A DNA stretch of 64,000 bases from Candidatus Thorarchaeota archaeon. GTDB taxonomy: Archaea > Asgardarchaeota > Thorarchaeia > Thorarchaeales > Thorarchaeaceae. The number at the start of each line of letters is the position of its first letter. The stretch's first letter is position 1. Below the pieces are notes generated by a model, which did not search any database, was not told where the DNA came from, and saw only the letters and a list, made by a program, of their open reading frames with translations. The position numbers and the translations under genes were made by a program. Positions 11,910-26,770 of this stretch are shown here, piece after piece. The stretch is taken from the NCBI GenBank assembly GCA_003345545.1, contig PRDH01000081.1, positions 56,483-120,482 of the forward strand, read 5' to 3'.

Positions 11910-12003
11910 ACAAGGTATCCGTAGCGGAAGCTGCGGATGGATCACCTCCTAAGTTTTCACCATCTTCAAGATGGTGAAGATTAGCTTGCCTGTCTTCGGA
12001 CAG

Positions 12004-12115
12004 GTAGAGGTACAGGCCTTCGACGGGGAACGCGGTGCAATCGTAAGGTTGCCCCGACGCCAAAGTGGAGAACTTGCTCTTGCTGTCGCTGTTGAGCCAC
12101 CCTTTTCCTTTTTCA
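12004..12115 (+). repeat. 16S 3' trailer repeat copy 1 (resident; processing-stem 3' strand plus T-rich terminator)
   Basis: GTAGAGGTACAGGCCTTCGACGGGGAACGCGGTGCAATCGTAAGGTTGCCCCGACGCCAAAGTGGAGAACTTGCTCTTGCTGTCGCTGTTGAGCCACCCTTTTCCTTTTTCA. Confidence 0.92.
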
Positions 12116-12230
12116 TTCATTTACATATGCAAGTTGACTCTCTATGTGTCATCTTGGAGGAAGTCCTTTCTTGATTTTCTCCAAGAGATCTCGTACCTCG
12201 CCAAACATCGCATCATAATCGATGACTATG

Positions 12231-13442
12231 CTAGAGTATCTCCGGAGTCGATTTTGAATCAATACCTGTGCGAGTCGCGCGAATTCTTCGTCTTCTCCAA
12301 CGAAGACCAAGGATACCAATAGTGAGTGCAATTGCAATTCCAGCGGTTCCAATGACTATCAGTAGAAGGTCCTCTTGACCTGAGAGGAGAAGCATGTCAA
12401 GATTGCCTCCTGCAGAGGTTCTGAGAATACAGCCATCGTATCCTACTACCCATCCGTGCAACTCATCAACGAAACAGACAGCCATCCTGCGACTGCCTAT
12501 GTCGGTAGGAACTGATTGTTGATACCAGGTACTTCCACCATTCGGCGTGTGCATCACAGGGATCTCATCGCCTACGATCCATCCGTGCTGGTCATCAATG
12601 AATTGTATATCTGAACAATATGGAGATCTGAGCCGAAATGAAGGAAGTCTTCCGGGGACAGCCAGCTCCTCCCACGTATGGTCTTGCTCCATGTGGAGGA
12701 GGTAGCCATCACTGACACCCCATGCTTCGTCTTCGTTGGGAAACGATAGGCTCCAGCCTCCCTTATCAAAGACCTTCTCCCAGGTCTCCGCGCCATCATC
12801 GCTATGGTAGATACCATCATAGCCAATCGCCCATACTTCATGCTCGGTCAAGAAATGCATGTCCCGAGGATTATCGTCAAACGTCCAACCAGTCATATTC
12901 TGCCAGGTCTGCCCTCCATCAGTTGTTTTGAAAAGCATCTGCATCGTGGCAGTCCATCCATGGGTCTCATTGAGGAACTCCACCGTACTCATGGTCGACA
13001 GACGATTACTACCCGCAAGAGAGGTATGCCATGACGCTCCACTATCGTTTGTGAAGTAGAGACGACCGAGTCCAGTCACCCATACTGTTCGATCATTCAC
13101 TACCTCAATTTGTCTGAATATCTGCGAATCATCAGCGAGCTGGGTCTCCCAGGTGTCCCCACCGTCTTCTGTGTGAAGAATAATACCACCTCTAGTTATG
13201 TTAGGGTACAATATTCCCACGACCCATCCGTGAGAGGAATTGATGAACTCAACATCACGAAATGTAGCCTCTGGGTAGTCGCTCTCAAGGGATATCCACG
13301 TTGTGGCCTGAGTCTGTGCAGGTCCTATCGACGCTGCATCTGTAGAAGTTATAGGCAGACCTGTGTATGCAAATCCAAGTAGGATCAGCAGTAGTATAGC
13401 ACTGAGCCTGCGACCGGTTCTGGATGTTCTCAGGGGAATCAT
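12231..13442 (-). CDS. Secreted, membrane-anchored YCF48/BNR-repeat beta-propeller protein (cassette cargo)
   Basis: Repeated TxDGGxTW Asp-boxes, F...HGWVVG, signal peptide, C-terminal TM. The ORF-track N-terminus runs through the repeat, so start reset to 13442. Confidence 0.85.
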   Translation of the reverse strand: MIPLRTSRTGRRLSAILLLILLGFAYTGLPITSTDAASIGPAQTQATTWISLESDYPEATFRDVEFINSSHGWVVGILYPNITRGGIILHTEDGGDTWETQLADDSQIFRQIEVVNDRTVWVTGLGRLYFTNDSGASWHTSLAGSNRLSTMSTVEFLNETHGWTATMQMLFKTTDGGQTWQNMTGWTFDDNPRDMHFLTEHEVWAIGYDGIYHSDDGAETWEKVFDKGGWSLSFPNEDEAWGVSDGYLLHMEQDHTWEELAVPGRLPSFRLRSPYCSDIQFIDDQHGWIVGDEIPVMHTPNGGSTWYQQSVPTDIGSRRMAVCFVDELHGWVVGYDGCILRTSAGGNLDMLLLSGQEDLLLIVIGTAGIAIALTIGILGLRWRRRRIRATRTGIDSKSTPEIL

Positions 13443-13518
13443 GCTCAGCTTATTCCTTACAGAATTGGTCTTGAATGAGTTATCATATAGGTCTTTGTCC
13501 ACCTTAGGTGGATACGAA

Positions 13519-13629
13519 GTAGAGGTACAGGCCTTCGACGGGGAACGCGGTGCAATCGTCAGGTTGCCCGATGCCAAAGTGGGGAACTTGCTCGTGCTGT
13601 CGCTGTTGAGCCACCCTTTTCCTTTTTCA
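13519..13629 (+). repeat. 16S trailer repeat copy 2 (long type)
   Basis: Near-identical to copy 1. Confidence 0.92.
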
Positions 13630-13736
13630 CCCATCTATCAGACTCAGTGGACCATTTATCAATTGATTTAAGAATCAGTCTGACTCCAAGTTCCTTGACT
13701 TTGATTACGTGGTAATGATAGGGTGGCTAATGAAGA

Positions 13737-14192
13737 ATGACCAGTGACAGACTGGCAAAATGGATCATGGCTATTACAACTCTGTTTGCCCCCTTTGGCG
13801 TGTACGCTTTCTCAGTACGTAACTCTATCCTCACGGTATCAATGCACGCTGTGTTATGGGGTATCATGCCAGGAGAGTCTGGAAATACTGGGTCGACACT
13901 ATTTGATATGTACATCATTATAGGGAGGGGTTTATTTTATGGCATCTTTAACATCTGGTTTGGCATAGAGGTCATCAGATACTTCAATGACTACACCCGT
14001 AGACGAATGGCCATTCAATCGGGAATCATATCATTACTCTACCCCTTTGCAATGGTCATCATTTCATGGCCTTGGCTTCAACATTCAACAACATTTGAGT
14101 ATCTTGGACCAATTCCCATCCAATTTATCGTTGGTCTCTTGTTGATGAAGTACTTTGGAGAACAAAAACCTCTTGAACCTTGGAGCGATTAA
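13737..14192 (+). CDS. Hypothetical membrane protein (cassette cargo)
   Basis: 151-aa ORF with about 4 TM segments, immediately after repeat copy 2. Confidence 0.75.
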   Translation: MTSDRLAKWIMAITTLFAPFGVYAFSVRNSILTVSMHAVLWGIMPGESGNTGSTLFDMYIIIGRGLFYGIFNIWFGIEVIRYFNDYTRRRMAIQSGIISLLYPFAMVIISWPWLQHSTTFEYLGPIPIQFIVGLLLMKYFGEQKPLEPWSD

Positions 14193-14376
14193 AATAGTGG
14201 CATTTGCTTCTCTATCTACTACCTCGGTGGAAACCCTCTCTTGACACGTTTTAGCATGAATCGCATATTGGTTGAGAGTAGTTAATATTGACCGTTTCAG
14301 ACAACTACATAGAGAGTTGATTCACAATCCCATAGATGAAAGAGTTTAATTCATAACCTTCGGATGGTAGTACATA

Positions 14377-14613
14377 ATGATGAAAGTAAAATTCACTGCT
14401 GTTGTATGGGAAGAAGAGGGGACATACGTTTCCAAATGTCCCGAGATTGATGTATCATCTGCAGGGGACACCGTTGAAGAGGCTCTGGCTAACCTCACAG
14501 AGGCAATAGAGCTCTGGCTCGTCAATGCACGTGAGCTTGGAATCATGGATGAGTATCTTCCGATGATGACTGCCTCTGAGAAGTCCACACGTACGATCGA
14601 GATCAACGTCTGA
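14377..14613 (+). CDS. hicB: HicB-family antitoxin
   Basis: YVSKCPEIDVSSAGDTVEEALANLTEAIELWL. Confidence 0.9.
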   Translation: MMKVKFTAVVWEEEGTYVSKCPEIDVSSAGDTVEEALANLTEAIELWLVNARELGIMDEYLPMMTASEKSTRTIEINV

Positions 14614-14658
14614 GTTCTAGATTTGTATGGCCGTTATAGCTGGCACACAGTGATGTCA

Positions 14659-14892
14659 ATGAGTAAGTTACCTCAGATCAGTAGTAAGAAGCTCATCCGG
14701 AGGTTACTCAAGGCTGGTTTTCAATACGCTCCTGTGAAAGGAAAAGGTAGTCATACCGCTCTCGTCAGGTATGATGATAATCGACCATATCTCGTTATCA
14801 TTCCTCACAGAGATCCGATTCCAAAGGGAACTCTTCTCTCAATCATCAAACAGAGTGGACTATCAAAAGAGAAATTTCTAGGCTTGTTATGA
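14659..14892 (+). CDS. hicA: HicA-family toxin
   Basis: GF...KGSH, VIIPH...IPKGTLLSIIKQSGL. Confidence 0.9.
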   Translation: MSKLPQISSKKLIRRLLKAGFQYAPVKGKGSHTALVRYDDNRPYLVIIPHRDPIPKGTLLSIIKQSGLSKEKFLGLL

Positions 14893-14940
14893 AGATTCGA
14901 GTACTCCTTTTGAAGGACTGACTTGTTCATCCCAAATGAA

Positions 14941-15047
14941 TACAGGTCTTCGACGGCGGGGAACGCGGTGCAATCGTCAGGTTGCCCGATGCCAAAGTGG
15001 GGAACTTGCTCGTGCTGTTCGCTGTTGAGCCACCCTTTCGTTTTTCA
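14941..15047 (+). repeat. 16S trailer repeat copy 3 (long type)
   Basis: TACAGGTCTTCGACGG...GCTGTTGAGCCACCCTTTCGTTTTTCA. Confidence 0.9.
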
Positions 15048-15091
15048 CTAGTTACTTCAATCAGTGCTGATTGAGGTTGAATGCAGGAGTT

Positions 15092-15298
15092 TCAAGTCTC
15101 TCTGTAACTGAGTTTCAATATTGCTAGAGCCACTGCAGATAGACCTAATGCAAGCACGATCATTTGAGCTCCAGCTATCACATCTGCGTTGAAGCCGCCC
15201 GATAGACTACCCAAGAGTAATGTTGCTGTTAATAATGCTAACACTACTAGAATATACACCAAAACTGATAGAACTCTCTGATGATTAATTGGAAACAC
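15092..15298 (-). CDS. Small two-TM membrane protein (cassette cargo)
   Basis: 68 aa, two hydrophobic helices; only plausible gene between copies 3 and 4. Confidence 0.6.
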   Translation of the reverse strand: MFPINHQRVLSVLVYILVVLALLTATLLLGSLSGGFNADVIAGAQMIVLALGLSAVALAILKLSYRET

Positions 15299-15404
15299 CT
15301 CCCAGTATTACATAACTAGAGATTCACTCAGAAGAACCTTCCTCTTCTATCCTAGTATTCCATGTTATCAGCTTTTCCGAATGCATATCTCTCTGATGGA
15401 CCTC

Positions 15405-15480
15405 GGGTACGGACCAACGGGGTCGGACTGTCGGGGAACTTGCCCCTGCTGTCGCTGTTGAGCCACCCCTTCATTCTTCA
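15405..15480 (+). repeat. 16S trailer repeat copy 4 (short type)
   Basis: GGGGAACTTGCCCCTGCTGTCGCTGTTGAGCCACCCCTTCATTCTTCA; lacks the GCAATC/GGTTGC hairpin. Confidence 0.85.
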
Positions 15481-15552: not shown

Positions 15553-15801
15553 ATGACATCAAAGACAATCTCTGTGACAGAAGATGTCTACAACCTTCTC
15601 CGGAAGATGCGATTACCTGGTGAGAGTTTCGGTGATACCATCAACCGACTATGTAAGTCCAAGACATCACTCTCTCTCCGTATATGGGCTGAGTCCTCCG
15701 ATGGCTGGAGCGATTTGACCCCTGAAGAAGCTACACGACTGGAAAACACCCTTGAAACAATCCGCATCACACTTCATCCCGAAGAGGTCGATCTAGATTG
15801 A
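15553..15801 (+). CDS. vapB: VapB-type antitoxin (archaeal)
   Basis: KTISVTEDVYNLL...GESFGDTINRL; overlaps PIN gene. Confidence 0.88.
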   Translation: MTSKTISVTEDVYNLLRKMRLPGESFGDTINRLCKSKTSLSLRIWAESSDGWSDLTPEEATRLENTLETIRITLHPEEVDLD

Positions 15802-16205
15802 TCTTCTTGGACACCACCCTTCTTGTAGACATCCTGAGAAAGGATAGGGTGGCAATCTCATGGCTGAATGACCTTGAAGAGCAAGCTCTGTATACATCAG
15901 AAATCAATGTCTTTGAACTATATACCGGCCTCTTCCGCGTTTCCCAAGGTTCTACTACAAAAAGAAAGAAGAGGGCTCTCGAGCTCGAGCAACTTCTCTC
16001 CAGGATGGAAGTACTTACGTTTGACAGAAATGCTGCCATTGAATCCGCGAAGATACTCTCCCTCCTGATGAGCAGAGGAGAACCCATTGGTACGCGTGAC
16101 ATCATGATTGCTGGTGTGGCACTATCCACGGGGATAACACAGCTAGTGACACGCAATATCCAAGAGTTCCAAAGGATTCCAGGTATACGTGTTGACTCCT
16201 ACTAG
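15798..16205 (+). CDS. vapC: VapC PIN-domain toxin
   Basis: IFLDTTLLVD, ELYTG, DIMIAGVAL, LVTRN..EF. Confidence 0.92.
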   Translation: MIFLDTTLLVDILRKDRVAISWLNDLEEQALYTSEINVFELYTGLFRVSQGSTTKRKKRALELEQLLSRMEVLTFDRNAAIESAKILSLLMSRGEPIGTRDIMIAGVALSTGITQLVTRNIQEFQRIPGIRVDSY

Positions 16206-16683
16206 ATTGACTTCTTGCATGAATCAATAATCACGAAGCATAGAATGGTTCAATAACCTTGAAGCATATGAAGGCTGAAACCGTGTTAATCTCATTGCTG
16301 TTCTGTGGCAGTTCCCTGCAATCTCAGACGCCCCTCATTTCGAGATACTCTCTAGTCTTCGGTTGGTTTTCTTCATAGTTGTAATGACATACATCTGGTC
16401 TTCGCACTATCAGTCAATGAGTACTTACAAGGAAAATCAACTGCATTCAGGGTCTCCATACTCTGGGCTGTCAGTCAGACGCCTATTCATGTACTTAGCC
16501 TTCCCCGTTGTTTTACAGGGTCATATCCTGGATCGATCTTCTACACCGGTCCTACATTCATAATTCTGATTGCCGGGTTGCTCTTGATGAAGCTCGTTCG
16601 GCAACGCAGCAATAGGCTGTGGGTCGAGTCTACTCAGTAGGACACTCTCGAGACGATGAATCATGCATATGCTTTCAAGGCAA

Positions 16684-16771
16684 AATGCAGTGCAATCTTC
16701 AGGTTGCCCCGACGCCAAGGTGGGGAACTTGCCCCTGCTGTTCGCTGTTGAGCCACCCTTTTCTTTTTACA
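16684..16771 (+). repeat. 16S trailer repeat copy 5 (long type, 5' truncated)
   Basis: GTGCAATCTTCAGGTTGCCCCGACGCC...GCTGTTGAGCCACCCTTTTC. Confidence 0.9.
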
Positions 16772-16927: not shown

Positions 16928-17344
16928 TTAGATATTGGTCGGGTCAAGTCTTGTTAGACCTTCTATTCTATCATAGATACGATCTGTTGAAGCAATAGTA
17001 TGATCCGGATTGTCATTACTGAGTGAAACTGCTGCATAAATCGCATCAAAGATGGAACCCAATCTATAATTCTCCAAGAGATATAGCGCTGCTAGTTGAT
17101 GATCAATTGTAGAAGGGACAACTGAGATATTTGGGAACGTAACAACGTGACTTATGATATCACGAACTGAGGACACACCAGTGAGGTTTCTCAAGACATA
17201 GTAAAGTTCTATGGAGAAGATACTTGGAACAAGGACACTCCCGAACTTACCTTCTTCAATACTTGAGAAAAGTCGAGTCGCATGCGTTTTTAGATTGTCA
17301 TTCTTCTTATAGAACGCCAAGATCATATCGTTCTCGATTAGCAT
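16928..17344 (-). CDS. PIN-domain (VapC-like) toxin
   Basis: MLIENDMILA, IELYYV, IFDAIYAA, IASTDRIYD. Confidence 0.85.
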   Translation of the reverse strand: MLIENDMILAFYKKNDNLKTHATRLFSSIEEGKFGSVLVPSIFSIELYYVLRNLTGVSSVRDIISHVVTFPNISVVPSTIDHQLAALYLLENYRLGSIFDAIYAAVSLSNDNPDHTIASTDRIYDRIEGLTRLDPTNI

Positions 17345-17574
17345 TCCGTTTCTTTCCGCCTCCATCGTTTGGATACATCCTTCGCAATCTCTGCATCTGC
17401 TTTGGCAAGGAGGTCCGCAATTGGTCCCTCAATATCCAATTCTGGTTTATCAGAGGGGATAGGAAAGAGGATATGATAAGATCCAATGGTAAGGAGAAGA
17501 AAAGTATCTCCTTCGAGTCCTGCCTTTCTTGGGATTCTGATGCGTCTTTGATCATCCATTCGAACTCTTACCAT
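17338..17574 (-). CDS. AbrB/MazE-like antitoxin
   Basis: VRMDDQRRIRIPRK; overlaps PIN gene; GAGGTG Shine-Dalgarno (SD). Confidence 0.8.
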   Translation of the reverse strand: MVRVRMDDQRRIRIPRKAGLEGDTFLLLTIGSYHILFPIPSDKPELDIEGPIADLLAKADAEIAKDVSKRWRRKETEC

Positions 17575-17720: not shown

Positions 17721-17786
17721 GTATCCGACGCGGAAGCTGCGGATGGAAGAAGTTGAGATTTCCTCATCTTCCATCACTCACCTCCT
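17721..17786 (+). pseudogene. Orphan 16S rRNA 3'-end fragment (h45 plus anti-SD) with its own 30-nt BHB intron (17748-17777)
   Basis: GTATCCGACGCGGAAGCTGCGGATGGA[intron]TCACCTCCT versus resident GTATCCGTAGCGGAAGCTGCGGATGGATCACCTCCT. Confidence 0.9.
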
Positions 17787-17951
17787 ATTTTTTCTACTTC
17801 ATAGAGGTAGAAGCAGCTTGGCTCGCAGTCCTTCGGGGCTGTGGGAGAAGTACGGGCCTTCGACAGCGGGGAACGCGGTGCAATCGTCAGGTTGCCCCGA
17901 CGCCAAAGTGGGGAACTTGCTCTTGCTGCGGCTGTTGAGCCACCCTTTTCG
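17787..17951 (+). repeat. 16S trailer repeat copy 6 (complete trailer with both upstream hairpins)
   Basis: Hairpin, AGCTTG, UUCG hairpin, then repeat; same layout as 11951-12115. Confidence 0.9.
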
Positions 17952-18050
17952 TTGTCTATCGTCAATTTCGGATGAGTGTAAGTCAGGTTTATCTTCTCTC
18001 TCGTTTGCTTTCAGGTTTAAATATGTGACTTGACCAAGTGGGAATAATCA

Positions 18051-18818
18051 GTGAAAGTCAAATGTTTTGATTGTGATGAAGTGATTGAAGCGGACAGCCT
18101 TGAAATGCTAGCAGATGTTTTTGTGACACATGGTATAAGGATCCATTCTTGGGAGTATCCCGAAGAGGCGATAAGAAATTACGCCTGCAATTACGCAGAA
18201 GCAGTAGAGCGACTCACAGGTGATACAGCAAGAAAAGAGGAAATTGGCGAAATCACGATACATCCAGTCACAAAGGACTCCATAGATGATTGGTTACATT
18301 TTTTCGATCATGATGGTTTCGCCGATAATCCTGGGTGGGCATCCTGCTACTGCCTCCAACCACATTTACCTACGACAGATGAGAACCTAGATCGTCCATG
18401 GCGTGAATCACGATCAATCATGGTCAAACGCCTCTTAAAGGGAGAAACATTTGGGTACTTAGCGTATGTTGATAACAAACCAGTGGGATGGGTAAACGCT
18501 TCTTTGTGCAGTGAGTATAAGCTTCTTCAACAAAGCGATCCGAATGGTCCTGAGTCAGCATCAATAATTGGTATCTCGTGTTTCGTGGTTGCTCCGCCCT
18601 ATAGAAGACATGGAATTGCGTCAGCCTTACTCGATCGTGTTATTGCGGACGCTGCCTCCCGTGGTGCATTGTGGATTGAGGGCTACCCTCGCAATAAGCC
18701 CGAGAGTAAAGATGACGCGCACTTTCGAGGACCTAGTAGTATGTACACTAATCGTGGATTCCAACCAGTTGTTGTTCGAGGACGTGATACTGTAATGCGT
18801 TTGCAGGTACACTATTGA
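18051..18818 (+). CDS. GNAT acetyltransferase with N-terminal CxxC domain (cassette cargo)
   Basis: CFVVAPPYRRHGIASALL; IEGYP. Confidence 0.85.
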   Translation: MKVKCFDCDEVIEADSLEMLADVFVTHGIRIHSWEYPEEAIRNYACNYAEAVERLTGDTARKEEIGEITIHPVTKDSIDDWLHFFDHDGFADNPGWASCYCLQPHLPTTDENLDRPWRESRSIMVKRLLKGETFGYLAYVDNKPVGWVNASLCSEYKLLQQSDPNGPESASIIGISCFVVAPPYRRHGIASALLDRVIADAASRGALWIEGYPRNKPESKDDAHFRGPSSMYTNRGFQPVVVRGRDTVMRLQVHY

Positions 18819-18862
18819 CTTCCCTTCAATGAAATTATAAGTAATCATCAACATTATGATTT

Positions 18863-19060
18863 ATGATAGATATGGGCGAGACCACTACGATTCCACTGAC
18901 TAAAGAGACACGTGATCTCCTGAAGAAACATGGTCAGAAGGGAGAGACCTACGACGAACTAATTCGTCGTCTTCTTCAGATAGCCGAACAAGTGGAGTTT
19001 GCCAGAAGACAGAAACGAATTCTCGAGGAAGAGGAGTTCGTTCCACTTGACCAAGTATAG
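18863..19060 (+). CDS. RHH-type antitoxin
   Basis: TTIPLTKETRDLL...GETYDELIRRL; overlaps relE. Confidence 0.8.
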   Translation: MIDMGETTTIPLTKETRDLLKKHGQKGETYDELIRRLLQIAEQVEFARRQKRILEEEEFVPLDQV

Positions 19061-19453: not shown

Positions 19454-19516
19454 TTAGAGCATTACTCAAATTCCTCTATCATAGTAGTGATATTTGGAAA
19501 TGTGAAGGATTGAATT

Positions 19517-19678: not shown

Positions 19679-19707
19679 TATGCTCACCAAGCGTTTCATA
19701 CGGACAC

Positions 19708-19782
19708 GAAGTAGTGGCGGAGGGGACGGGTGATTTGGGAACTTTCCTTTAGTTTGTCGCTGTTGAGCCACTCTTTTTTCAT
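19708..19782 (+). repeat. 16S trailer repeat copy 8 (short, degenerate)
   Basis: GAAGTAG...GGGAACTTT...GTCGCTGTTGAGCCACTCTTTTTTCA. Confidence 0.75.
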
Positions 19783-19903
19783 TCATCTATTCTTATGACT
19801 GGACTCTCGTTTTTGTTCGAATAAATTCCCGACTGTCACAACTCTAATATGATATTGTGATCTACATCTACTTTGAGTGGGCTAACTAGGATGGAGGTCA
19901 AAG

Positions 19904-20653
19904 ATGGCTGGCAATAGTCTTGGACTCAGTCCTCTTCAGAAGAGCATGATTATAGGCTATGCCTTCTTTGTTGTTGCGTACAGTCTAAGCATCATGACCG
20001 CACTCTTGATTGGAGGTATCGGAGGACTTGTGCCTAGGGGCTCTCTCTGGTTCCGGGTGACCTACGACCTGCTCAGGCAGAGCACCAATCTTGCAATGCC
20101 GGTGTTCATCTCCATTCTCCCCCTGTTAGTCATGCTCAACCTGAACTATATATGGTTCAAACACCTATCCACGTCCGAGCCTCTCTCTGCAAGGAAAGTG
20201 TCTATTCAGACTGTCCTTGGCGTCTTCGTTGCTCTTCCTCTCTTGATACTTGCCGTGAGCATGATGGTCGTTTCTGCAGAGTCGATTATCGGGTGGTATG
20301 AACAATGGCCTGTCTATGGTGTTATTTTCTTCGTCGTATCTCTGCTGTACATGCTTGTAATCTCCGTCATCTCAGCAAGTGAGAAGAAGCGGTTCCTAGT
20401 TCAAAGTCTTACGAGTGCTCGCCTGTGGGTGCCATATGTCCTCGTCTCCGTCTTGCTGGCTTTCCCAGTTGCTGGAGTAATTCTCCCCTTCTTCAAGGGG
20501 TATTGGATGTCAATTCCTCTTGGCCGAGCGTTAGACACTTTTTTGAGAGCATTCTGGGTATCCTTGGTCCTGCCGGTTCTTCCGTACATATTTGCTCGCC
20601 TAAGCGTGAAACCTGATTCTCCTAGCGGATTCTCAGATGAAGGCTCGAAGTAG
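19904..20653 (+). CDS. Hypothetical multi-pass membrane protein (cassette cargo)
   Basis: About 6 TM segments; stop codon is the TAG of the repeat's GAAGTAG 5' motif. Confidence 0.75.
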   Translation: MAGNSLGLSPLQKSMIIGYAFFVVAYSLSIMTALLIGGIGGLVPRGSLWFRVTYDLLRQSTNLAMPVFISILPLLVMLNLNYIWFKHLSTSEPLSARKVSIQTVLGVFVALPLLILAVSMMVVSAESIIGWYEQWPVYGVIFFVVSLLYMLVISVISASEKKRFLVQSLTSARLWVPYVLVSVLLAFPVAGVILPFFKGYWMSIPLGRALDTFLRAFWVSLVLPVLPYIFARLSVKPDSPSGFSDEGSK

Positions 20654-20751
20654 GGACGGCGGGGAACGCGGTGTAATCGTCAGGTTGCCCCGATGCCAAA
20701 GTGGGGAACTTGCTCTTGCTGTTCGCTATTGAGCCACCCTCTCATTCTTCA
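20646..20751 (+). repeat. 16S trailer repeat copy 9 (long type)
   Basis: CGAAGTAG...GGGGAACGCGGTGTAATCGTCAGGTTGCCCCG...GAGCCACCCTCTCATTCTTCA. Confidence 0.9.
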
Positions 20752-20838: not shown

Positions 20839-21981
20839 TTAGGCCCTACCACCCTCCACGCTATCACCCGGCGTTCTTACCCTTTTCAACCACCAGCATA
20901 GGATAACAATGGCTGCTAATCCACCAACGAGTAAGAGCGGTTCCAAGCCTATGCTAGGTCCACCACTCTCTCTGATTTCCAGAATGACGAACCCGTTATC
21001 TTGGTCTGTCATATAGACTAGATTACCGACCACTTCAACACGGTTAGGCTTACCGCCATCGAAGTAGCGGGTAACTTCAGTAAGCTGAGTTGGATTTTGA
21101 ATATCTAGTAGCAGTAGTCCTAATTCAAGATCACAGAGAAATGCAAGATTGCGCTCAGTGTCAATGTGAACAGAAAAAGCATCCAAACTCTCATTGAATT
21201 CAGATACAACTCTGATGTTTGATAGATCACTTATATTCAGTACCTTGAGGCTCTTATCCCAATAACTTAGAAAAGCTAAATCTCCAACGATCTCAAGATC
21301 ACCCATGTCAGTATCGCTAGTCGACTGTCCTATGTACTGTGCTAGTAGTATTGGATTAGTGTAGTTACCAACGTCAAAAACAGTGAACCCTTTGTAGCTT
21401 GTCGTCACAAATGCCAGATTATCCAAAACCTCAATATCGGTTGCACCTCCAATTGTGATGAAACTGCTCAGTAGTGTAGGTGTGGTAGGATCCGTCACAT
21501 TGACAATCGTCAGTTTCCCACCACTGCCTGGGAATCCATTGGCAACGAAGGCTACATCTCCTATCACTTCTACATCCCACGCATAATCACCAGTGAACTG
21601 ACTCAGAACAGCGGGGCTAGATATGTTCTCGAAATCGATAATTCTGAGTCCGCCATGACCATCCCCTATGAACACTAGATTATCACGCATGACAAGTTGG
21701 TGTGCATATCCACTTGAGGAAGAAGATACGTTTGCTATCTCAATCGGATTAGTCGGGTCACTAATATCAAAGACCTTTACTCCAGAGTAACCACATGTAA
21801 CATAGGCCATGTCATTGTCGGTATCGACCCACACGTCATAGGCATCACCAGTTTCAATCTGTCCAGCTTTTGTTAGCACAATCCCACTCGTACTCGCTCC
21901 AGACGCGAAACAGATTGCTCCTGACTCTAGAATGAGGACTAACGCTAGAATGCAAACGACGGTAATGAGTCTGCTCTTCAT
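20839..21981 (-). CDS. LVIVD-repeat beta-propeller surface protein (cassette cargo)
   Basis: Repeated GLRIID/VFDISDPTNP units, signal peptide, C-terminal TM. Confidence 0.85.
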   Translation of the reverse strand: MKSRLITVVCILALVLILESGAICFASGASTSGIVLTKAGQIETGDAYDVWVDTDNDMAYVTCGYSGVKVFDISDPTNPIEIANVSSSSSGYAHQLVMRDNLVFIGDGHGGLRIIDFENISSPAVLSQFTGDYAWDVEVIGDVAFVANGFPGSGGKLTIVNVTDPTTPTLLSSFITIGGATDIEVLDNLAFVTTSYKGFTVFDVGNYTNPILLAQYIGQSTSDTDMGDLEIVGDLAFLSYWDKSLKVLNISDLSNIRVVSEFNESLDAFSVHIDTERNLAFLCDLELGLLLLDIQNPTQLTEVTRYFDGGKPNRVEVVGNLVYMTDQDNGFVILEIRESGGPSIGLEPLLLVGGLAAIVILCWWLKRVRTPGDSVEGGRA

Positions 21982-22255
21982 TCTATGTTTCCTCCATCAC
22001 TGATTTCCATCAACATTTCGGCTCCTAATGCCCTAATTCTCAGATTGCATGAAGACAAAATCATGCACCAAGAGTCGCGATGTTTCATTGAATTAAGAAT
22101 GGCGTTCAGCGCAGGCGATGTGTACATACTCCACAATGTTCGAGCATCGCAAGAAGCCATACCGCAAGAGTGTCTTCTTTCATGGCTGACATCGTGCATT
22201 AGAAATGTAATAGGAGCAGATTCCGCCGTTCCTAGGAACTGGATCTCTTGGCAGA

Positions 22256-22336
22256 GAGAAGTATAGATTGGTGGAGTCTGGTAATCAGGGAACTTGCCCC
22301 TGCTGTTCGCTGTTGAGCCACCCTTTTCATTTTTCA
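22256..22336 (+). repeat. 16S trailer repeat copy 10 (short type)
   Basis: GAGAAGTA...TCAGGGAACTTGCCCCTGCTGTTCGCTGTTGAGCCACCCTTTTCATTTTTCA. Confidence 0.85.
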
Positions 22337-22476: not shown

Positions 22477-22836
22477 ATGGTTAAAGAGATAGAGATTTCC
22501 GTGGAGGCTTACAGTCTTTTAGAAAAGGCGAGATTGCAGGGTTGGCAATAGCTGCAAGACACTTGAACAGAGTTGGACAGGTGCTTATATAGTTCAGTCC
22601 GAACTAGTCCTGTGAGGATGACCCGACATGAACTCTATCCTCACGGAGTTGTGCCCAGTGCCGTCTTCTGGGCGGACAGCACTCTGGTGTCCAAGTTTGT
22701 CCAACTAACAATGAACGGTGAAGATATCAGTGATACGATCCTCCGCCTAATAGAGTTGAGAGAACGAACTGAATTCGTCAAGCGTCAGAAGCAAATTGCT
22801 GAGGCTGAGGACTTCCTTCCACTTAATCAATCCTGA
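22477..22836 (+). pseudogene. Antitoxin gene interrupted by a 177-bp element
   Basis: Removing 22542-22718 gives a 60-aa ORF MVKEIEISVEAYSLLEKARLQG-EDISDTILRLIELRERTEFVKRQKQIAEAEDFLPLNQS, similar to 18863-19060. Confidence 0.85.
22542..22718 (+). mobile_element. Non-autonomous structured insertion element, copy 1 (177 bp)
   Basis: Interrupts an antitoxin gene; homologous to 44542-44717; lies 3' of CAGGG. Confidence 0.85.
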
Positions 22837-22896
22837 GATTGAGTCAAGTCTGAAACCAGACAGATGTCTTCATATACTCTGTCATACATAGTATAC

Positions 22897-23211
22897 ATGA
22901 TAGAGATGGGCGATGTTCTTTCAGTCAGAATGGATGAAGAATTGGAGAAGCGTCTTGCATTCCTGATGGAGAAGAAGAAGATAGTGGATAAATCATCATA
23001 TGTAAGGCAGCTCATTGATAGGTCTCTATCAGATGATCTTCTCGATTATCTGTCTGAGGAAGTTGCTGCTAGACATATCAGCATCTGGAAGGCTGCTTCT
23101 ATTGCCGGTATCCCACTCAGGGCCATGATGAGTGAGCTGGCAAAACGTAACATATCGATGTATGATGAACAAGCACTCACTGAGGACTTGATTTTTGCAG
23201 AGGGCAGATGA
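22897..23211 (+). CDS. UPF0175-like antitoxin (RHH plus HTH)
   Basis: VLSVRMDEEL..., ISIWKAASIAGIPLRAMMSEL. Confidence 0.8.
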   Translation: MIEMGDVLSVRMDEELEKRLAFLMEKKKIVDKSSYVRQLIDRSLSDDLLDYLSEEVAARHISIWKAASIAGIPLRAMMSELAKRNISMYDEQALTEDLIFAEGR

Positions 23212-23716
23212 ATTGATTGCAGTCGTCAACTCATCACCTCTCATATACTTGGGGAAACTTGGTCTTCTTAGCTTGCTACAACAATTGTTTGACCATGTGC
23301 TCACTGTTCCTTCTGTGAAGGAAGAGGTTCTTGATTCTTCTGCTTCTGAATATGCCACACTGCAGAGTGCATTCTCAGACTGGTTGATAGTGTCTGATGT
23401 TCCAAAAAGCGTTCTCTCAACAAGACTGAGCGATATGGGCCTCCATCAAGGCGAGGTGGACACTCTTGTACTTGCTTATCATACGAAAGAGCAACAATCC
23501 GATTCGGTCATTATTATTGATGACCTAGCAGCTAGAGACGTAGCTAGATCGCTAGGGCTGAGAGTGGCCGGAACTATCGGTATTATTCTACGAGCAACAA
23601 AGAATGGGTTACTTACAAAAAATGAATCACGCGCCAGAATTCGTTTTCTTGTTGAAGAAACATCATTCCGGATGTCAGCTGCATTGTACTCCAGAGTCAT
23701 CTCTGGTCTAGAATGA
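23195..23716 (+). CDS. DUF3368-like PIN-domain protein (toxin)
   Basis: VVNSSPLIYL, LHQGE, IIDDLAAR, GTIGIILRA. Confidence 0.85.
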   Translation: MQRADELIAVVNSSPLIYLGKLGLLSLLQQLFDHVLTVPSVKEEVLDSSASEYATLQSAFSDWLIVSDVPKSVLSTRLSDMGLHQGEVDTLVLAYHTKEQQSDSVIIIDDLAARDVARSLGLRVAGTIGIILRATKNGLLTKNESRARIRFLVEETSFRMSAALYSRVISGLE

Positions 23717-23743
23717 GTGAATCTTAGAGTTACTGAGAATGAC

Positions 23744-23850
23744 AGGTATGAGCCCTCGACGGCGAACGCAGTGCAACAGTCAGGTTGCCCCGACGTCAGA
23801 GTGGGGAACTTGCCCTTGCGTTCGTTGTTGAGCCACCCTCTTCATTTTAC
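23744..23850 (+). repeat. 16S trailer repeat copy 11 (long type, diverged)
   Basis: CTCGACGGCGAACGCAGTGCAACAGTCAGGTTGCCCCGACG...GTTGAGCCACCCTCTTCATTTT. Confidence 0.85.
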
Positions 23851-23924: not shown

Positions 23925-24593
23925 ATGAGTGATATTGAGCGTCAAACACTGTGTTTTCAGTACTGTGGTGAAGTGAATACTGAAAGAACATTGTTAGCTG
24001 CAAGAGAGCGCTGCAAGACGCTTGATTTGAGCAAAGTGGTAGTTGCTTCCGAAACTGGAAGAAGCGCCTTGAAAGCTGTTGAGGTCTTCAAGAATTCGGA
24101 TATCATCTTGATTGTTGTGACTCACTATCCTGCCTCAACATGGGGCCCAAAAGGAAGGATACCGATAGGTCTTGGTCGTCACGAATACACTGATACTCGA
24201 GAAGCTTTGGTTAACCATGGTGTCAAAATAGTCCAGAGCACAAGACCATTCGCACCACCGTCAAGATCTTTAGACTGGAACTATCCTACGCCTGAGGCAA
24301 TCATCGATCGAACACTCGATGTATTCGGTTCCGGGACCAAAATTGCTATTGAAGCGGCAATCATTGCTGTGGACTGCGGAGAAGTCGAAGAGGGTGAAGA
24401 TGTCATTTCATGTGCAGGCACATTCAAGGGACTCGATACAGCTCTATGCGTTCGGCCAACATATACGATGAATTTCTTTAAGTCATTCGAGATTCGAGAA
24501 ATAATCGCCAGACCCGTGTGCAGAGTTCAGACACTGCCAGAGCATGAACACAAGAACTGGAAAGGTAACCTCGACCAATATCTTACTCAATGA
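23925..24593 (+). CDS. Pyruvate-kinase C-terminal-like alpha/beta domain protein
   Basis: GEVNTERTL, VVASETGRSAL, GTFKGLDTA, EIREII. Confidence 0.8.
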   Translation: MSDIERQTLCFQYCGEVNTERTLLAARERCKTLDLSKVVVASETGRSALKAVEVFKNSDIILIVVTHYPASTWGPKGRIPIGLGRHEYTDTREALVNHGVKIVQSTRPFAPPSRSLDWNYPTPEAIIDRTLDVFGSGTKIAIEAAIIAVDCGEVEEGEDVISCAGTFKGLDTALCVRPTYTMNFFKSFEIREIIARPVCRVQTLPEHEHKNWKGNLDQYLTQ

Positions 24594-24641
24594 CAACAAA
24601 GTTGAATCAAGAAAGTAGATTATATCCATTCCACCACTCTT

Positions 24642-25661
24642 TTGAGAGGCCTTCTTCCGCCAAACCCTGAAATGCAAACCATTGCTGTGATTTGGCTCAT
24701 GGTCTTCTTAGGAGGATACATCGCAATCTACCTTCTAGCTGATCTCATCATCGACGCTCTAGAGAATCTCAGTCAATCATTTGCTATCTCTCCCATAGTC
24801 TTAGGACTACTAGTCCTTGGAATTGATGTAGAAGAGAGCATTGTTTCCTTAGTTGCAGCTGTAGATGGTCTCCCCTATCTTTCACTTGGCCAACTCATAG
24901 GAAACACAGTGATAGCAATTGCGATTGCATTCGGCGTACCTGCTCTCTTTCTCAGAATTGAGGTCGACCAGCTTCCAAGATTCTACTATGCTGAGCTGGT
25001 GATTGCAGGTATAGTAGTGTTGGTATCAATGGTCCTGACAAGCTACCTGATCGTATTCGGACTTCTGGCCATTGCTCTCTTCGTCATTCATTTACGCCAC
25101 ACTTTTCACATACAAAGGGAATTCAGGTCGGCCGTCAGAAGTCCGGAACGGTTTGAACTGACTCCCAATTTGGAACGTGAAAAATGCACAGGCGAAAAGA
25201 GTGAAGGTCGTGCGCGGTTTGTAATCAAATTGCTGCTGGCTCTACTTGCTGTGTTCGTTAGCGGTGAGGTCTTGGTTGTCAGTGCTGAGGAGCTTGTCGT
25301 CTTAACCGGACTAAGTGAAACTTTCTTTGGATTGGTCATAATGGCGGCTGTGACCAATGTTGAGGAGTTCTGGCTCATTGTCAAGGCGGTACAAAAAGGT
25401 CAGACTGCATTGGGTGTGAGTGCGCAGGTTGGTAAGATAATCTGGAACACCACGTTAATCTTCGGGCTCTGCAGCCTGTTTCTGTTTCAGTTCACATTTG
25501 AGATGATAATGCTGACGAGCTCGATTATCTTTGTCTTTGCACTCGTCGTATTGGTAGTTAATCTCACTCAGAATCGATCATCGAGAGCGACCGGTATTGG
25601 CTATCTATTGATTCTCCTGATTTTCCTAGCCATCAATTCCCTTGGTTTTCTGATAGGCTGA
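24642..25661 (+). CDS. Na+/Ca2+ (CaCA) exchanger family protein
   Basis: Two alpha-repeats (GLLVLG..VEES; GLVIMAAVTNVEE); about 10 TM segments. Confidence 0.8.
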   Translation: MRGLLPPNPEMQTIAVIWLMVFLGGYIAIYLLADLIIDALENLSQSFAISPIVLGLLVLGIDVEESIVSLVAAVDGLPYLSLGQLIGNTVIAIAIAFGVPALFLRIEVDQLPRFYYAELVIAGIVVLVSMVLTSYLIVFGLLAIALFVIHLRHTFHIQREFRSAVRSPERFELTPNLEREKCTGEKSEGRARFVIKLLLALLAVFVSGEVLVVSAEELVVLTGLSETFFGLVIMAAVTNVEEFWLIVKAVQKGQTALGVSAQVGKIIWNTTLIFGLCSLFLFQFTFEMIMLTSSIIFVFALVVLVVNLTQNRSSRATGIGYLLILLIFLAINSLGFLIG

Positions 25662-25675
25662 ATCTGGTGATGAAA

Positions 25676-25754
25676 GAAGTAGAGGCTGACGGAGTCAGGC
25701 GTTCAGGGAACTCTCCAGTTCCTCGAACTGGTGAGCCATCCTTCTCGTTTTCAC
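25676..25754 (+). repeat. 16S trailer repeat copy 12 (short, degenerate)
   Basis: GAAGTAGAGG...TCAGGGAACT...TGAGCCATCCTTCTCGTTTTCA. Confidence 0.65.
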
Positions 25755-25791
25755 TTATCTCATCAATCTTAGAACAGGAGCAATTCCTCGA

Positions 25792-26571
25792 TTATAGTGC
25801 CTCTCTGACCTCTCTCTTGAAGTTCTCAGCGTCAAAGAATCCTGACCTTATTGGTCGCTGGTTGACAATGCAATCAGGGACTCTGCCTCCTCTCTTCTCA
25901 ACCTCTTCAGGCTGATTGAGCTTGTTGATGGTCTGTATCGGGATGCTAGGAGAAACCTCTCTAATCAGCTGTACCATCTTTTCGACGAAGCGAATGCTGA
26001 ATGGACAAGTCCCATCGAAAAAGATCAGAGCCTTCTCTCTGTCCTCGCTCCTCCGAGTGTATCTCTCTTTTGGAGGCGTGTAGGTTACACCATCCCTTAA
26101 TGGGTAGCAGAGTAGGTGAGGATCTTCGGCGGTCGCACTAAACCCCTTCTTCCGATAGAACTCATGTTGAGTGTATGTCCCAGGAACATCAAATGCATTG
26201 GTCACAAGTGCTTTGACAGTCATATTTCTGAAACATGACACAGGAGTCGTCACATCATCGATCAAGCTCTTCAGCAAAGCGCTACCAATCCCCTTTCTAA
26301 GATGCTTGTCGCTTGGAACGAATATGCAGGCTATTTTGACCACGTTTTCGTCTGGGCAAGGCAGGTATTGAATCATACCGACAGGTTTTGTACCATCGTA
26401 GGCGAGTTTTCCGATACACCCTTTCTCGGCCAGCATACGTTCAACCCAATCAGCCTTCAGGCTTATTCCTCTCTTGAAGGAAGATTCATCAGCTCTATCA
26501 GCTGGCACACACAATCTGACGAAGTCCTCTAGGTTCTCTCTGCTGACATTCCTAGTATGAAATCTAGCCAT
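25792..26571 (-). CDS. GNAT acetyltransferase (YoaP-like)
   Basis: VGMIQYLP, IACIFV...RKGIGSALL, C-terminal CPF. Confidence 0.8.
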   Translation of the reverse strand: MARFHTRNVSRENLEDFVRLCVPADRADESSFKRGISLKADWVERMLAEKGCIGKLAYDGTKPVGMIQYLPCPDENVVKIACIFVPSDKHLRKGIGSALLKSLIDDVTTPVSCFRNMTVKALVTNAFDVPGTYTQHEFYRKKGFSATAEDPHLLCYPLRDGVTYTPPKERYTRRSEDREKALIFFDGTCPFSIRFVEKMVQLIREVSPSIPIQTINKLNQPEEVEKRGGRVPDCIVNQRPIRSGFFDAENFKREVREAL

Positions 26572-26703
26572 ATGTTCTCATACACGCCATTTGTGAATTG
26601 CATTCTACGTGAGAGAATACAAGCCTTTCCGTAATCTCTGAATCACCTGAAGCAGAACCTGATTGAGCACCAAAAGCGCCAATAGGCTACCCCGCCGCCG
26701 AAG

Positions 26704-26748
26704 CAGGGAATTTGTCCTTTGCCGTTGAGCTACTTTTTCATTTTTCGT
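26704..26748 (+). repeat. 16S trailer repeat copy 13 (degenerate remnant)
   Basis: CAGGGAATTTGTCCTTTGCCGTTGAGCTACTTTTTCATTTTTC. Confidence 0.6.
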
Positions 26749-26770
26749 TCACTTACATTTTCGAGTGAAC

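Follow-up and report, generated by a model that had tools for sequence, protein, structure and literature searches.

A gene-cassette array anchored on the 16S rRNA tail of a thorarchaeon, possibly built by host homologous recombination

The 16S rRNA gene of an Asgard archaeon (Candidatus Thorarchaeota) is trailed by 13 same-strand copies of a ~105-nt unit, on which repeat searching, nhmmer, and a covariance model agree. What is repeated is the distal 3' strand of the stem by which pre-16S RNA is processed, together with its T-tract. We interpret the locus as a gene-cassette array anchored on the rRNA tail and, on balance, favor host homologous recombination over a dedicated integrase as its agent. 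A sequence-only reading of the same DNA had reported about 13 direct copies of the 16S 3' trailer, at positions within a few tens of bases of those recovered here, and had known of no such system; likewise, we found no description of an rRNA-tail cassette array in the published literature. The window (the whole stretch analyzed, 64,000 nt of contig PRDH01000081.1) comes from a metagenome-assembled genome (MAG; G000, assembly GCA_003345545.1) that is 93% complete, in 82 contigs, with 5.4% estimated contamination. G001 denotes the sister species, and Gnnn:Cnn a contig in a related genome.

The array is anchored by the 16S rRNA gene (10389..11950, + strand; Rfam RF01959, 1246 bits), which is the sole copy in the genome, is unlinked from the 23S gene on contig C34, and reaches 1562 nt because of short insertions. 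Its 5' leader (10198..10386, +) is nearly identical in G006; it supplies the 5' strand of the stem, and within it lies GGCTCAACAG, complementary to the unit core. The genuine 3' trailer (11951..12115, +) comprises two proximal hairpins (11951-12005) and then unit c01 (12006-12115, +), which starts 55 nt past the gene and ends in GCTGTTGAGCCACCC plus the T-tract. RNAduplex pairs leader 10198-10386 with trailer copy 1 at -102 kcal/mol. The general model of archaeal pre-rRNA processing (PMC7038931) has a leader-trailer helix with bulge-helix-bulge sites, of which this copy is the 3' strand. The other 12 copies, in contrast, lie between protein genes without a partner leader, and they are expected to have no processing role.

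With up to three mismatches allowed, the 15-mer GCTGTTGAGCCACCC has 12 + strand matches from 12088 to 25741; shuffling the whole window gave a mean of 1.46 matches, and none of 100 shuffles reached 15. The 2.69-Mb assembly holds 16 copies of the unit, 13 on one strand of the 16S array and only three elsewhere (C12:6813-6918, +; C81:53895-53950, -; C81:54437-54544, -), so the repeat is not scattered genome-wide. A TTGAGCC 3' block and the GAAC of the preceding hairpin are invariant in all 16. The lowest unit scores belong to c12 and c13, in line with the earlier claim that the copies farthest from the 16S gene are the most decayed; however, c04, c08, c10, and c12 represent a second trailer type (type B) rather than decayed copies, and in G006 and G017 a type B trailer adjoins the 16S gene itself.

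A T-tract, which in archaea is a termination signal, closes every unit. The copies might accordingly be kept for an RNA-level or transcriptional function, as terminators, insulators, or leader decoys, with gene turnover incidental. Consistent with such a function, the unit blocks involved in leader pairing are the best conserved, such pairing remains feasible for several internal units (-58 to -75 kcal/mol vs. ~-46 for shuffled sequence), and the hairpin GGGG-AACTTG-CCCC alternates among A-U, G-U, and G-C pairs between copies. On the other hand, c11 and c13 pair with the leader no better than shuffled sequence, the unit matches no Rfam family, and the copies would need to serve genes on either strand; a terminator role also leaves the pseudo-16S ends, reordering, and recombinant units described below unexplained. 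We consider this explanation very unlikely.

Cassettes span 0.25-2 kb and carry genes in both orientations. Pfam bears out most of the cargo read from sequence (five toxin-antitoxin [TA] pairs, two GNATs, YCF48 and LVIVD propellers, and a cation exchanger), and several multi-transmembrane (TM) proteins are there too, but the zinc finger on that list was not found. Cassette 1 (12231..13520, -) encodes a YCF48/BNR-type beta-propeller (PF14870, 3.5e-26) with an 81%-identical homologue in G001:C30, and its mechanical ORF extends into unit c02 (type A; 13521..13629, +). Cassette 2 (13737..14892, +) consists of two + strand modules fused without a unit at 14208/14209, a 151-aa membrane protein (by TM count) and a HicB-like/HicA pair (14377-14613 and 14623-14892; Pfam), whose counterparts lie in separate arrays, G003:C139 and G001:C30/G029:C14. 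Unit c03 (type A; 14939..15048, +) precedes cassette 3 (15092..15298, -), a 68-aa protein with two TM segments and no Pfam match, and c04 (type B; 15380..15480, +) precedes cassette 4 (15553..16205, +), a VapB antitoxin and PIN (VapC) toxin (PF02697, PF01850) with homologues in the G001, G003, and G014 arrays. Past c05 (type A, diverged; 16663..16769, +), cassette 5 (16928..17555, -) encodes a PIN-domain protein (PF01850) that overlaps its 82-aa partner; the two probably form a TA pair and have homologues in G001:C30 and G029:C14.

The extended unit c06 (17721..17958, +) begins with a pseudo-16S 3' end, made up of a copy of helix 45, an inserted 30-nt hairpin, and finally TCACCTCC; it continues through the proximal trailer hairpins and closes with the 105-nt unit (17846-17958, +). 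It keeps the helix-45 and anti-SD copy, with the exact 18-mer GCGGAAGCTGCGGATGGA at 17730; its 30-nt insertion is missing from the source's real 16S gene, whereas G001 and G029 have it at the end of theirs. Cassette 6 (18051..19328, +) again joins two + strand modules, at ~18819/18826: a GNAT acetyltransferase (18051-18818; Pfam) and a ParD-like antitoxin (18863-19060) with ParE (18999-19328; Pfam and translation). The whole is 95% identical to G001:C17, and in eight other arrays the GNAT and ParE modules occur as cassettes of their own.

Unit c07 (type A; 19340..19454, +) is followed by cassette 7 (19455..19688, +), which at 0.23 kb has small ORFs only and is 86% identical to G001:C17, where it comes after cassette 9. 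Next are c08 (type B; 19689..19786, +) and cassette 8 (19904..20653, +), a 249-aa multi-TM protein for which no homologue was found in G001, then c09 (type A; 20641..20751, +) and cassette 9 (20839..21981, -), an LVIVD-repeat beta-propeller (PF08309, 1.2e-34) that is 93% identical to G001:C17 and also present in the G011, G006, and G017 arrays. After c10 (type B; 22239..22336, +), cassette 10 (22538..23716, +) combines a ~182-nt MITE-like repeat with dispersed copies (22538-22720) and UPF0175 (22864-23211, +) and DUF3368 (23195-23716, +) genes assigned by Pfam; the latter two are probably a TA pair, with homologues in G005:C86 and G029:C14. Unit c11 (type A; 23743..23850, +) leads to cassette 11 (23925..25661, +), whose products are a 222-aa protein, PK_C-like on a weak match, and a member of the Na+/Ca2+ exchanger family (Na_Ca_ex; 24642-25661) that has homologues in the G006 and G009 arrays. 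Unit c12 (type B, low score; 25654..25754, +), cassette 12 (25792..26571, -; the second GNAT acetyltransferase, PF00583), and c13 (26649..26748, +; the last recognizable copy and the most diverged) complete the array, and a sensitive covariance-model search found no unit past 26749. The variable region beyond (26771..38087), without recognizable units, encodes a 308-aa membrane protein, a metallo-beta-lactamase-fold protein, a hydrolase, and others, and includes a pyruvate formate-lyase-like gene (28956-31367) that is absent from G001 and is flanked by two units in G011:C230.

A covariance-model scan of relatives, as the sequence-only reading had suggested, revealed arrays across the whole archaeal family. 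Model R1 detected them in 27/27 sampled species of the genus, with matches in 4/9 other genera of the family; 24 genomes from outside the family gave none. The 16S end was located in six genomes from four genera, and the array begins at it in every one: in the window and in G001:C31, G006, G017, G029, and G030, the 16S gene runs directly or after a short gap into the first unit. Cassettes recur in other species' arrays in changed order: the window has cassettes 6-7-8-9 where G001 has 6-9-7, and cassettes 8 and 10-12 have no counterpart in G001. Cassette order is thus not invariant across relatives, and the proposed dynamic array anchored on the 16S 3' end stands. Repeated capture at that end was also proposed, but gain and loss reach beyond the 16S-proximal part of the array, as the cassettes absent from G001 indicate. 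An assembly or binning artifact at a repeated rRNA locus might be suspected from the contig number and estimated contamination of the MAG, and relatives' contigs often break inside arrays. The same architecture, however, appears in 28 independently assembled genomes, with the 16S gene and first units on one contig in six of them; array copies differ by 6-50% and are therefore not collapsed reads, and core-genome collinearity with G001 is restored past the array at ~38087. An artifact is thus exceedingly improbable.

The unlinked 23S gene has an array of its own, built from its own 3' end and trailer, whose sequence is unrelated to the 16S unit. Copies of the 23S tail at +0.9 and +1.9 kb, 97-98% identical and ending at the T-tract, flank a HepT/MNT pair and a YdjM gene; the tail is also multicopy in G001, G002, G010, G017, and G024. 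The absence of an integrase, described from the window beside integron-like cargo, holds at genome scale: PF00589, PF00239, PF00078, and PF01797 were not found in the 93%-complete G000, which leaves no tyrosine or serine recombinase, reverse transcriptase, or Y1 transposase there, and the search for a co-occurring recombinase elsewhere in the genome came back empty for these families. Two TnpB-like genes lie on other contigs of the source MAG. Among the 28 genomes of the genus, which are incomplete MAGs, PF00589 occurs in 8/28 and PF00239 in 8/28; 20/28 have no PF00589 match, arrays are present in 28/28, and none of the recombinase matches listed lies on a contig with a listed R1 match. Of the two agents initially put forward, a trans-encoded recombinase and homology-facilitated recombination, the latter is favored by the parallel 23S array and by the absence of known recombinase families from most genomes of the genus.

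The repeated unit copies the 3' part of the pre-16S transcript: some copies extend from helix 45, most cover just the last ~105 nt of the trailer, and all stop at the terminator T-tract. We propose that such units serve RadA-type host homologous recombination as portable homology arms. Two direct units would recombine to loop out a circle carrying a cassette and one hybrid unit; the circle, or imported unit-bearing DNA, could then loop in at any resident unit. The usual exchange point would be the longest conserved block, the core TGCTGTTCGCTGTTGAGCCACCC plus T-tract, which is constant across species because it is paired with the conserved 5' leader in the genuine trailer. Homologous recombination is probably the agent; circular intermediates and the way in which DNA passes between cells are likewise inferred. 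Among the features observed, this model predicts an intact resident processing stem, cassettes with their own, often foreign-type, distal unit, and ragged 5' but uniform 3' unit ends.

In HMM coordinates, units start raggedly (3-227) and end at 263-280 except in a few truncated copies; the 5' starts of extended units recur near the beginning of helix 45. In both mapped rearrangements the exchange falls within the final 25-45 nt of the unit, and in the G001 recombinant units (alignments A5 and A6) the parent switches between GGGAACTTGCCCC and the T-tail. Because an exchange at the unit 3' end leaves the resident trailer in place, the earlier suggestion that each incoming trailer pushes the older one outward fits only extended copies with a pseudo-16S end, such as c06, and not the mapped exchanges. 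Interspecies BLAST matches continue through the downstream unit ~4 times as often as through the upstream unit, with right ends concentrated at model positions 100-119 (39 ends), left ends concentrated at 80-89, and only 10 matches beginning at the unit 5' end. The downstream units of ParE cassettes (G001, G003, G011, G014, G017, and G029) are 65-80% identical, against a background of ~55%. Counting against the model, a paired test of whether the upstream or the downstream unit accompanies a cassette showed no difference (63.6% vs. 64.0%, n = 30). Gene conversion would keep the units of one genome alike: the nearest unit is in the same genome for 43/88 units (expected 7.5), units average 68-94% identity within genomes against 66% between them, and one internal copy in G001 matches the real tail at ~98% identity along ~245 nt, the match being confined exactly to the homology block. 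Against homologous recombination, many unit pairs are just 60-75% identical, a poor substrate outside the core; the repeated helix-45 starts could reflect a defined element end; and both crossovers also fit a single fixed site in the ~25-nt core, which holds GTTGAGC, matching the integron R' consensus GTTRRRY. Cassette junctions without a unit (14208/14209, 18819/18826) imply that other processes act too.

That fixed-site fit would also suit an unrecognized, possibly divergent, dedicated site-specific recombinase acting on the conserved core, its gene lying elsewhere in the genome or on an element left out of the bin, as would the invariant 3' block, the uniform 3' boundary, the more frequent linkage of cassettes to the downstream unit, and the TA-dominated cargo, like that of sedentary chromosomal integrons. 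An enrichment of integrons and CALINs in Asgard MAGs has been reported (Ghaly et al. 2022, PMC9668308), and such arrays, archaeal ones included, resemble the 16S array in their one-directional short repeats between modules of one to three genes, in a cargo rich in TA pairs and acetyltransferases, and in an exchange point at the repeat 3' end within a GTTRRRY motif. They differ in starting at intI/attI instead of an rRNA gene, whereas the 16S array has no IntI or other tyrosine recombinase, carries genes on both strands without a common promoter, and coexists with a second array on a different, unrelated repeat at the 23S gene. Moreover, attC is an imperfect palindrome with an inverse core; the unit reproduces the 16S trailer (in some copies the 16S 3' end) and has neither an RYYYAAC inverse core nor a long imperfect palindrome, and RNAalifold over all copies retains just two 3-bp hairpins. 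These differences, the missing recombinase families, and an IntegronFinder survey of archaea with only two Thorarchaeaceae MAGs, at 2 attC each, make a dedicated recombinase rather doubtful.

Tandem accretion of self-mobile integrative elements at the 16S 3' end, as in tycheposons and tRNA-targeting islands, would have each element bring a replacement tail and displace the old one, its integrase and replication genes being deleted later. Partial copies of a stable-RNA gene 3' end are the classic scar of such integration (10.1101/2020.12.28.424599), and the extended units with a pseudo-16S end, including the c06 insertion still carried by the sister's real 16S gene, are in keeping with it. Prochlorococcus tycheposon islands (same source) and tRNA/tmRNA 3'-end islands likewise grow beside a stable-RNA gene, with module boundaries marked by partial 3'-end copies, older material farther out, and cargo swapped between strains. 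Every element in those systems, however, encodes a tyrosine or serine recombinase of its own, often with replication genes, and none was found here; the 16S array also has far smaller modules, is anchored on an rRNA trailer, and shows its mapped exchanges at the distal end of the repeat, not at its 5' end. In Ca. Heimdallarchaeum, the mobile elements HeimM2 and HeimV2 also lie exactly downstream of the only 16S gene (Wu et al. 2022, PMC8813620), but each is a lone element (8 kb and 44 kb) that brings its own genes, homing-endonuclease-like or viral, and no trailer-copy array is described there. Accretion is further opposed by the lack of any integrase or fragment on array contigs among the matches listed for the 28 genomes, by cassettes in the distal half of the array that are also missing from the sister species, and by the finding of no unit in IMG/VR viral contigs; we judge it improbable.

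Host homologous recombination between portable rRNA-tail units is therefore the reading we prefer, with the original observation confirmed and its interpretation partly supported. By analogy with chromosomal integrons, the toxin-antitoxin cassettes probably guard the array against deletion collapse. If a dedicated recombinase does act on these units, the system would be a functional analogue of the integron, in which the 16S trailer takes the part of attI and the cassette units that of attC.

The genome of this archaeon (G000) carries a single archaeal 16S rRNA gene at window positions 10389–11950, the sole 16S copy in the 2.69-Mb, 82-contig, 93% complete assembly; its 23S gene lies on a different contig (C34), and it encodes tRNA-Sec. 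Rfam also places a 104-nt tRNA, presumably intron-containing, at 5823–5926 on the minus strand, which is absent from the ARAGORN output. Directly 3′ of the 16S gene, 13 co-oriented units of ~105 nt span 12006–26748, so that the array of 16S-trailer copies reported in the sequence-only reading is real. The core of the unit, GCTGTTGAGCCACCC, is matched 15 times in the window when up to three mismatches are allowed (1.46 expected), and the rest of the assembly holds just three more copies of the unit. Since 13 of the 16 copies sit in one same-strand array and three elsewhere, the unit is neither a dispersed MITE nor a generic terminator; the genome-wide scatter in both orientations that would mark a MITE, REP or dispersed terminator repeat is absent. 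Two trailer units of opposite orientation lie at G000:C81:53895–54544, 2 kb before the window and some 12 kb 5′ of the 16S gene, where they flank a 141-aa ORF lacking a Pfam match and form a stray mini-array away from any rRNA gene.

The first unit, c01, is the genuine 16S trailer: the leader (10198–10386) and trailer (11946–12125) form a long duplex (−102 kcal/mol), with leader blocks GGCTCAACAG and GCCTGTAC complementary to CTGTTGAGCC and GTACAGGC of the unit. This complementarity identifies the unit as the distal 3′ strand of the pre-16S processing stem followed by a T-tract, at which transcription should end. The T-tract terminates every unit of the window's array; only copy 1 combines a position immediately 3′ of the 16S gene with complementarity to the 5′ leader. 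Type B units (c04, c08, c10 and c12) have only the last ~45 nt in common with the window's own, type A, trailer, to which they are 51–60% identical, as against 65–73% identity to the 16S-adjacent trailers of two other species (G006 and G017). Separate leaders for the two types, which would oppose the earlier proposal that each new trailer pushes an older tail outward, were rejected, as the window and G006 have almost the same leader, a near-invariant sequence with which either type pairs. A solitary type B unit is found at G000:C12:6813–6918, between a ThiI gene with a 103-aa ORF and a group of small ORFs, 1.3 kb from the tRNA-Sec gene and a KTI12/PSTK-like kinase.

Pfam searches bear out the cargo that had been named for the array, namely YCF48 and LVIVD propellers, toxin–antitoxin pairs, two GNATs and an exchanger. 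The full set comprises a YCF48/BNR propeller, HicB/HicA, VapB/PIN, a PIN protein with a small partner, a GNAT, ParE with a ParD-like partner, an LVIVD propeller, UPF0175/DUF3368, a Na+/Ca2+ exchanger and a second GNAT, in addition to several small or multi-TM proteins. Cassettes 1, 3, 5, 9 and 12 are encoded on the minus strand and the remaining cassettes on the plus strand, which departs from the co-oriented, mostly promoterless cassettes read from Pc that define an integron or CALIN. Cassettes 2 and 6 each consist of two modules fused without an intervening unit (at 14208/14209 and 18819/18826), the halves of which are separate elsewhere. In a set of 19 array loci drawn from 13 genomes, ParE, GNAT and PIN are the most recurrent families, and one TnpB-like gene is among the recurrent array genes. 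A TnpB-like gene (Cas12f1-like TNB domain, 580 aa) lies within the 16S arrays of G030:C9 (L035, 11192–12934) and of the sister species at G001:C31 (L026, about 5900–7751); the two TnpB-like genes of G000 are on contigs other than that of the array. A ~182-nt MITE-like repeat with short terminal inverted repeats (GTTGGACA...TGTCCAAC) occurs at 22538–22720, inside cassette 10, where it overlaps a mechanical 87-aa ORF, and at 44542–44722; with six copies in G000 and about 30 in G001, on many contigs, it is genuinely dispersed, unlike the trailer unit.

To describe the distribution of the unit we used a covariance model (R1), which matched all 27 species sampled from the genus and four of nine other genera of the family, always in same-strand clusters, and 0 of 24 genomes outside the family. 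Arrays are present in genera g1–g4 and g8, and the R1 search found none in g5–g7, g9 and g10. In all six genomes with a located 16S 3′ end (the window, G006:C24, G017:C205, G029:C2, G030:C9 and G001:C31), the first unit begins at that end or a short distance past it. Arrays often occupy entire contigs or reach contig ends, and that of G001 is in three pieces totaling about 40 kb. Among genera without an R1 match, the 7.7 kb 3′ of the 16S gene in G031 contain no trailer repeats; its use as an array-free "empty site" was rejected, for the flank has nothing in common with the window. In G035, also from such a genus, a 592-kb contig (C2) ends 34 nt past a 2.4-kb intron-rich 16S gene, the kind of break that a diverged trailer repeat would be expected to cause there as well. 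Scanning IMG/VR with two core patterns returned chance matches only, none fitting R1; the core pattern in genome contigs was found only in G001 and in chance bacterial matches, and in metagenome contigs it recovered eight short contigs (1–3.8 kb) with units and no informative context.

BLAST comparison of the window's array with the other arrays reveals that its modules recur in the arrays of other species in different orders and beside different neighbors. Relative to G001, whose core genome is ~90% identical, cassettes 6, 9 and 7 are 95%, 93% and 86% identical, respectively, and occur in the order 6-9-7 rather than the 6-7-8-9 of the window. Accretion would place new elements next to the RNA gene and older ones outward; the proximal cassettes 1–5 have G001 relatives of only 75–83% identity, scattered on another G001 contig, cassettes 6, 7 and 9 stand at 86–95%, and the distal cassettes 8 and 10–12 have no counterpart in G001. 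Order and content therefore vary among relatives, and the repeat tends to travel with the cassette, with no bias toward either side in a paired co-travel test. A sensitive covariance search found no unit past c13 up to 42 kb, and the region is variable to about 38087. Within this stretch, the gene for an 803-aa pyruvate formate-lyase-like glycyl-radical enzyme (28956–31367) behaves like a cassette: in G011:C230 it has a trailer unit on either side, and it is absent at the syntenic place in G001.

Some units extend into the 16S gene itself. The unit c06 (17721–17958), which is longer than the others in the window, opens with a copy of helix 45 (the exact 18-mer GCGGAAGCTGCGGATGGA), followed by a 30-nt hairpin insertion (17748–17777, between GGATGGA and TCACCTCC), the TCACCTCC segment, two proximal trailer hairpins and the unit proper. 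This insertion, which G001 and G029 carry in their real 16S genes, is missing from that of the window. The window's real gene contains another ~30-nt hairpin insertion at 11879–11908, between GAAGTCGTAA and ACAAGG; the presence of such insertions near the 16S 3′ end varies among close relatives. Helix 45 and the anti-SD tail are included in c06 and in many units of relatives, and extended units repeatedly begin near the start of helix 45. Fixed 3′ and ragged 5′ ends suggested a retro-copy origin, which we set aside because no reverse transcriptase was found in the genome and c06 keeps its insertion unspliced.

To locate the exchanges, we compared two recombinant G001 units with the parental units of the window. 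Unit X is c07-like on its left (flank and first half of the unit) and c09-like from the first diagnostic T-tail base, while unit Y is type B, c10-like, up to GGGACTCGCCCC and c07-like from the T-tail on (alignments A5 and A6, respectively). These switch points place both exchanges within TGCTGTTCGCTGTTGAGCCACCC and the T-tract. Among 294 between-genome BLAST matches, 39 right ends fall at unit positions 100–119, left ends cluster at 80–89, and only 10 matches start at the unit 5′ end. ParE cassettes in six genomes retain a similar downstream unit, and a decayed remnant of the downstream unit follows cassette 7 in G001. The cassette thus tends to travel in an integron-like layout, as T-tail, genes and next unit up to the core. 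Since the paired comparison of upstream with downstream units over all cassettes gave no difference, and a downstream bias is seen only in the BLAST-end histogram and the ParE family, this layout is a tendency and not a rule.

The 23S gene of G000 has its own small array (C34:19900–24018), built on a repeat unrelated in sequence to the 16S unit. The last 25–57 nt of the 23S gene and ~95 nt of trailer are repeated at +0.9 and +1.9 kb with 97–98% identity, ending at a T-tract, and these copies bound a HepT/MNT toxin–antitoxin pair and a YdjM membrane protein gene. Multiple copies of the 23S tail also occur in G001, G002, G010, G017 and G024, and G001 has a pseudo-23S end 12.5 kb past the real one. 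The 23S cassettes have nothing in common with the 16S arrays compared. The 23S array would be left unexplained by a recombinase that recognizes only the 16S core.

What agent moves the cassettes? No intI adjoins the array, and G000, at 93% completeness, has no match to PF00589, PF00239, RVT_1 or Y1_Tnp. Of 28 genomes of the genus, only eight have a tyrosine recombinase (PF00589) and only eight a serine recombinase (PF00239), and none of these matches is on a listed array contig. As in tycheposon islands, which carry tandem partial tRNA copies, each module lies between partial copies of the 3′ end of the target gene; tycheposon islands, however, come with integrases, and no PF00589 or PF00239 match that could mark a site-targeting integrase or its remnant was found in the window, in G000 or on the array contigs listed for the genus. 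Classical accretion of integrase-bearing elements, against which cassette size and these missing integrase remnants both count, is accordingly improbable.

The ends of the units and their relationships point elsewhere. Unit 5′ ends are ragged (HMM starts 3 to 227) and 3′ ends uniform; homology arms that differ in length would give such a pattern. The nearest unit is in the same genome for 43 of 88 units, against 7.5 expected, and an internal extended unit of G001 matches the real 16S tail at ~98% identity along ~245 nt, a match confined exactly to the homologous block; gene conversion would predict both the within-genome likeness and this block. In real trailers the leader holds the core constant, making it the longest stretch of identity common to units of different origin, and homologous exchange would be expected there. 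The lack of a known recombinase, the ragged 5′ and uniform 3′ ends, the within-genome likeness, the 23S array and the conserved core together favor homologous recombination, and the mechanism is most likely integrase-free and homology-driven. The original interpretation is partly supported: the cassette array anchored on the 16S 3′ end, its integron-like cargo and the lack of an integrase stand; as for the agent, left there between a trans-encoded recombinase and homology, homologous recombination is favored.

A dedicated enzyme of unrecognized kind acting on the units is a less likely agent; both mapped exchanges also fit a single site, extended units recurrently start near helix 45, and GTTGAGC in the unit fits the integron R′ consensus GTTRRRY. 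An attC site is an imperfect palindrome of the form R″(RYYYAAC)-L″...L′-R′, folding as a single strand with extrahelical bases. The RYYYAAC partner of R′ is absent from the unit, the 5′ arm being CTTCGAC with G–T pairs. Folding the type A copies, the type B copies and the full set with RNAalifold yielded no conserved long stem of the attC kind, and the consensus fold over all copies retains only two 3-bp hairpins. With similarly low probability, the Thorarchaeia may have independently evolved an integron counterpart, in which both rRNA 3′ tails serve as attachment sites and yet-unrecognized machinery captures and shuffles cassettes; candidates for this machinery would be recombinases of a new family, or else a process tied to transcription termination or to breakage at rRNA terminators. 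Such a counterpart, if real, would supply accessory genes to a lineage largely without classical integrases.

Integrons have been reported in 75 archaeal MAGs, with enrichment in Asgard, as defined by IntegronFinder attC and IntI calls, and the supplement of that study lists only two Thorarchaeaceae MAGs, with two attC each (PMC9668308). Every sampled species of the genus has an array, which, set against those two MAGs, indicates that these arrays have evidently not been described as integrons. In Heimdallarchaeum, two elements lie directly 3′ of the 16S gene. We found no description of trailer-bounded arrays in the literature on Asgard, rRNA trailers, cassettes or direct repeats; the array is a variant of the cassette-array or island-accretion kind that is previously undescribed in the literature searched. 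In practical terms, arrays of this kind break assemblies at rRNA genes, and their spare 16S tails can mislead rRNA annotation and binning.

Eukaryotes have their closest known relatives among the Asgard archaea, whose gene exchange is poorly understood. Behind the sole 16S gene, the whole family keeps a large, swappable store of accessory genes that in some species reaches at least 40 kb, and behind the 23S gene a smaller one, with boundary elements that are copies of a sequence constrained by ribosome biogenesis and with no integrase found. A homology-driven mechanism may escape notice elsewhere, because tools of the IntegronFinder type look for attC and IntI. If homologous recombination on borrowed conserved sequences suffices to build and trade these arrays, integron-like evolvability would be attained without a dedicated enzyme.
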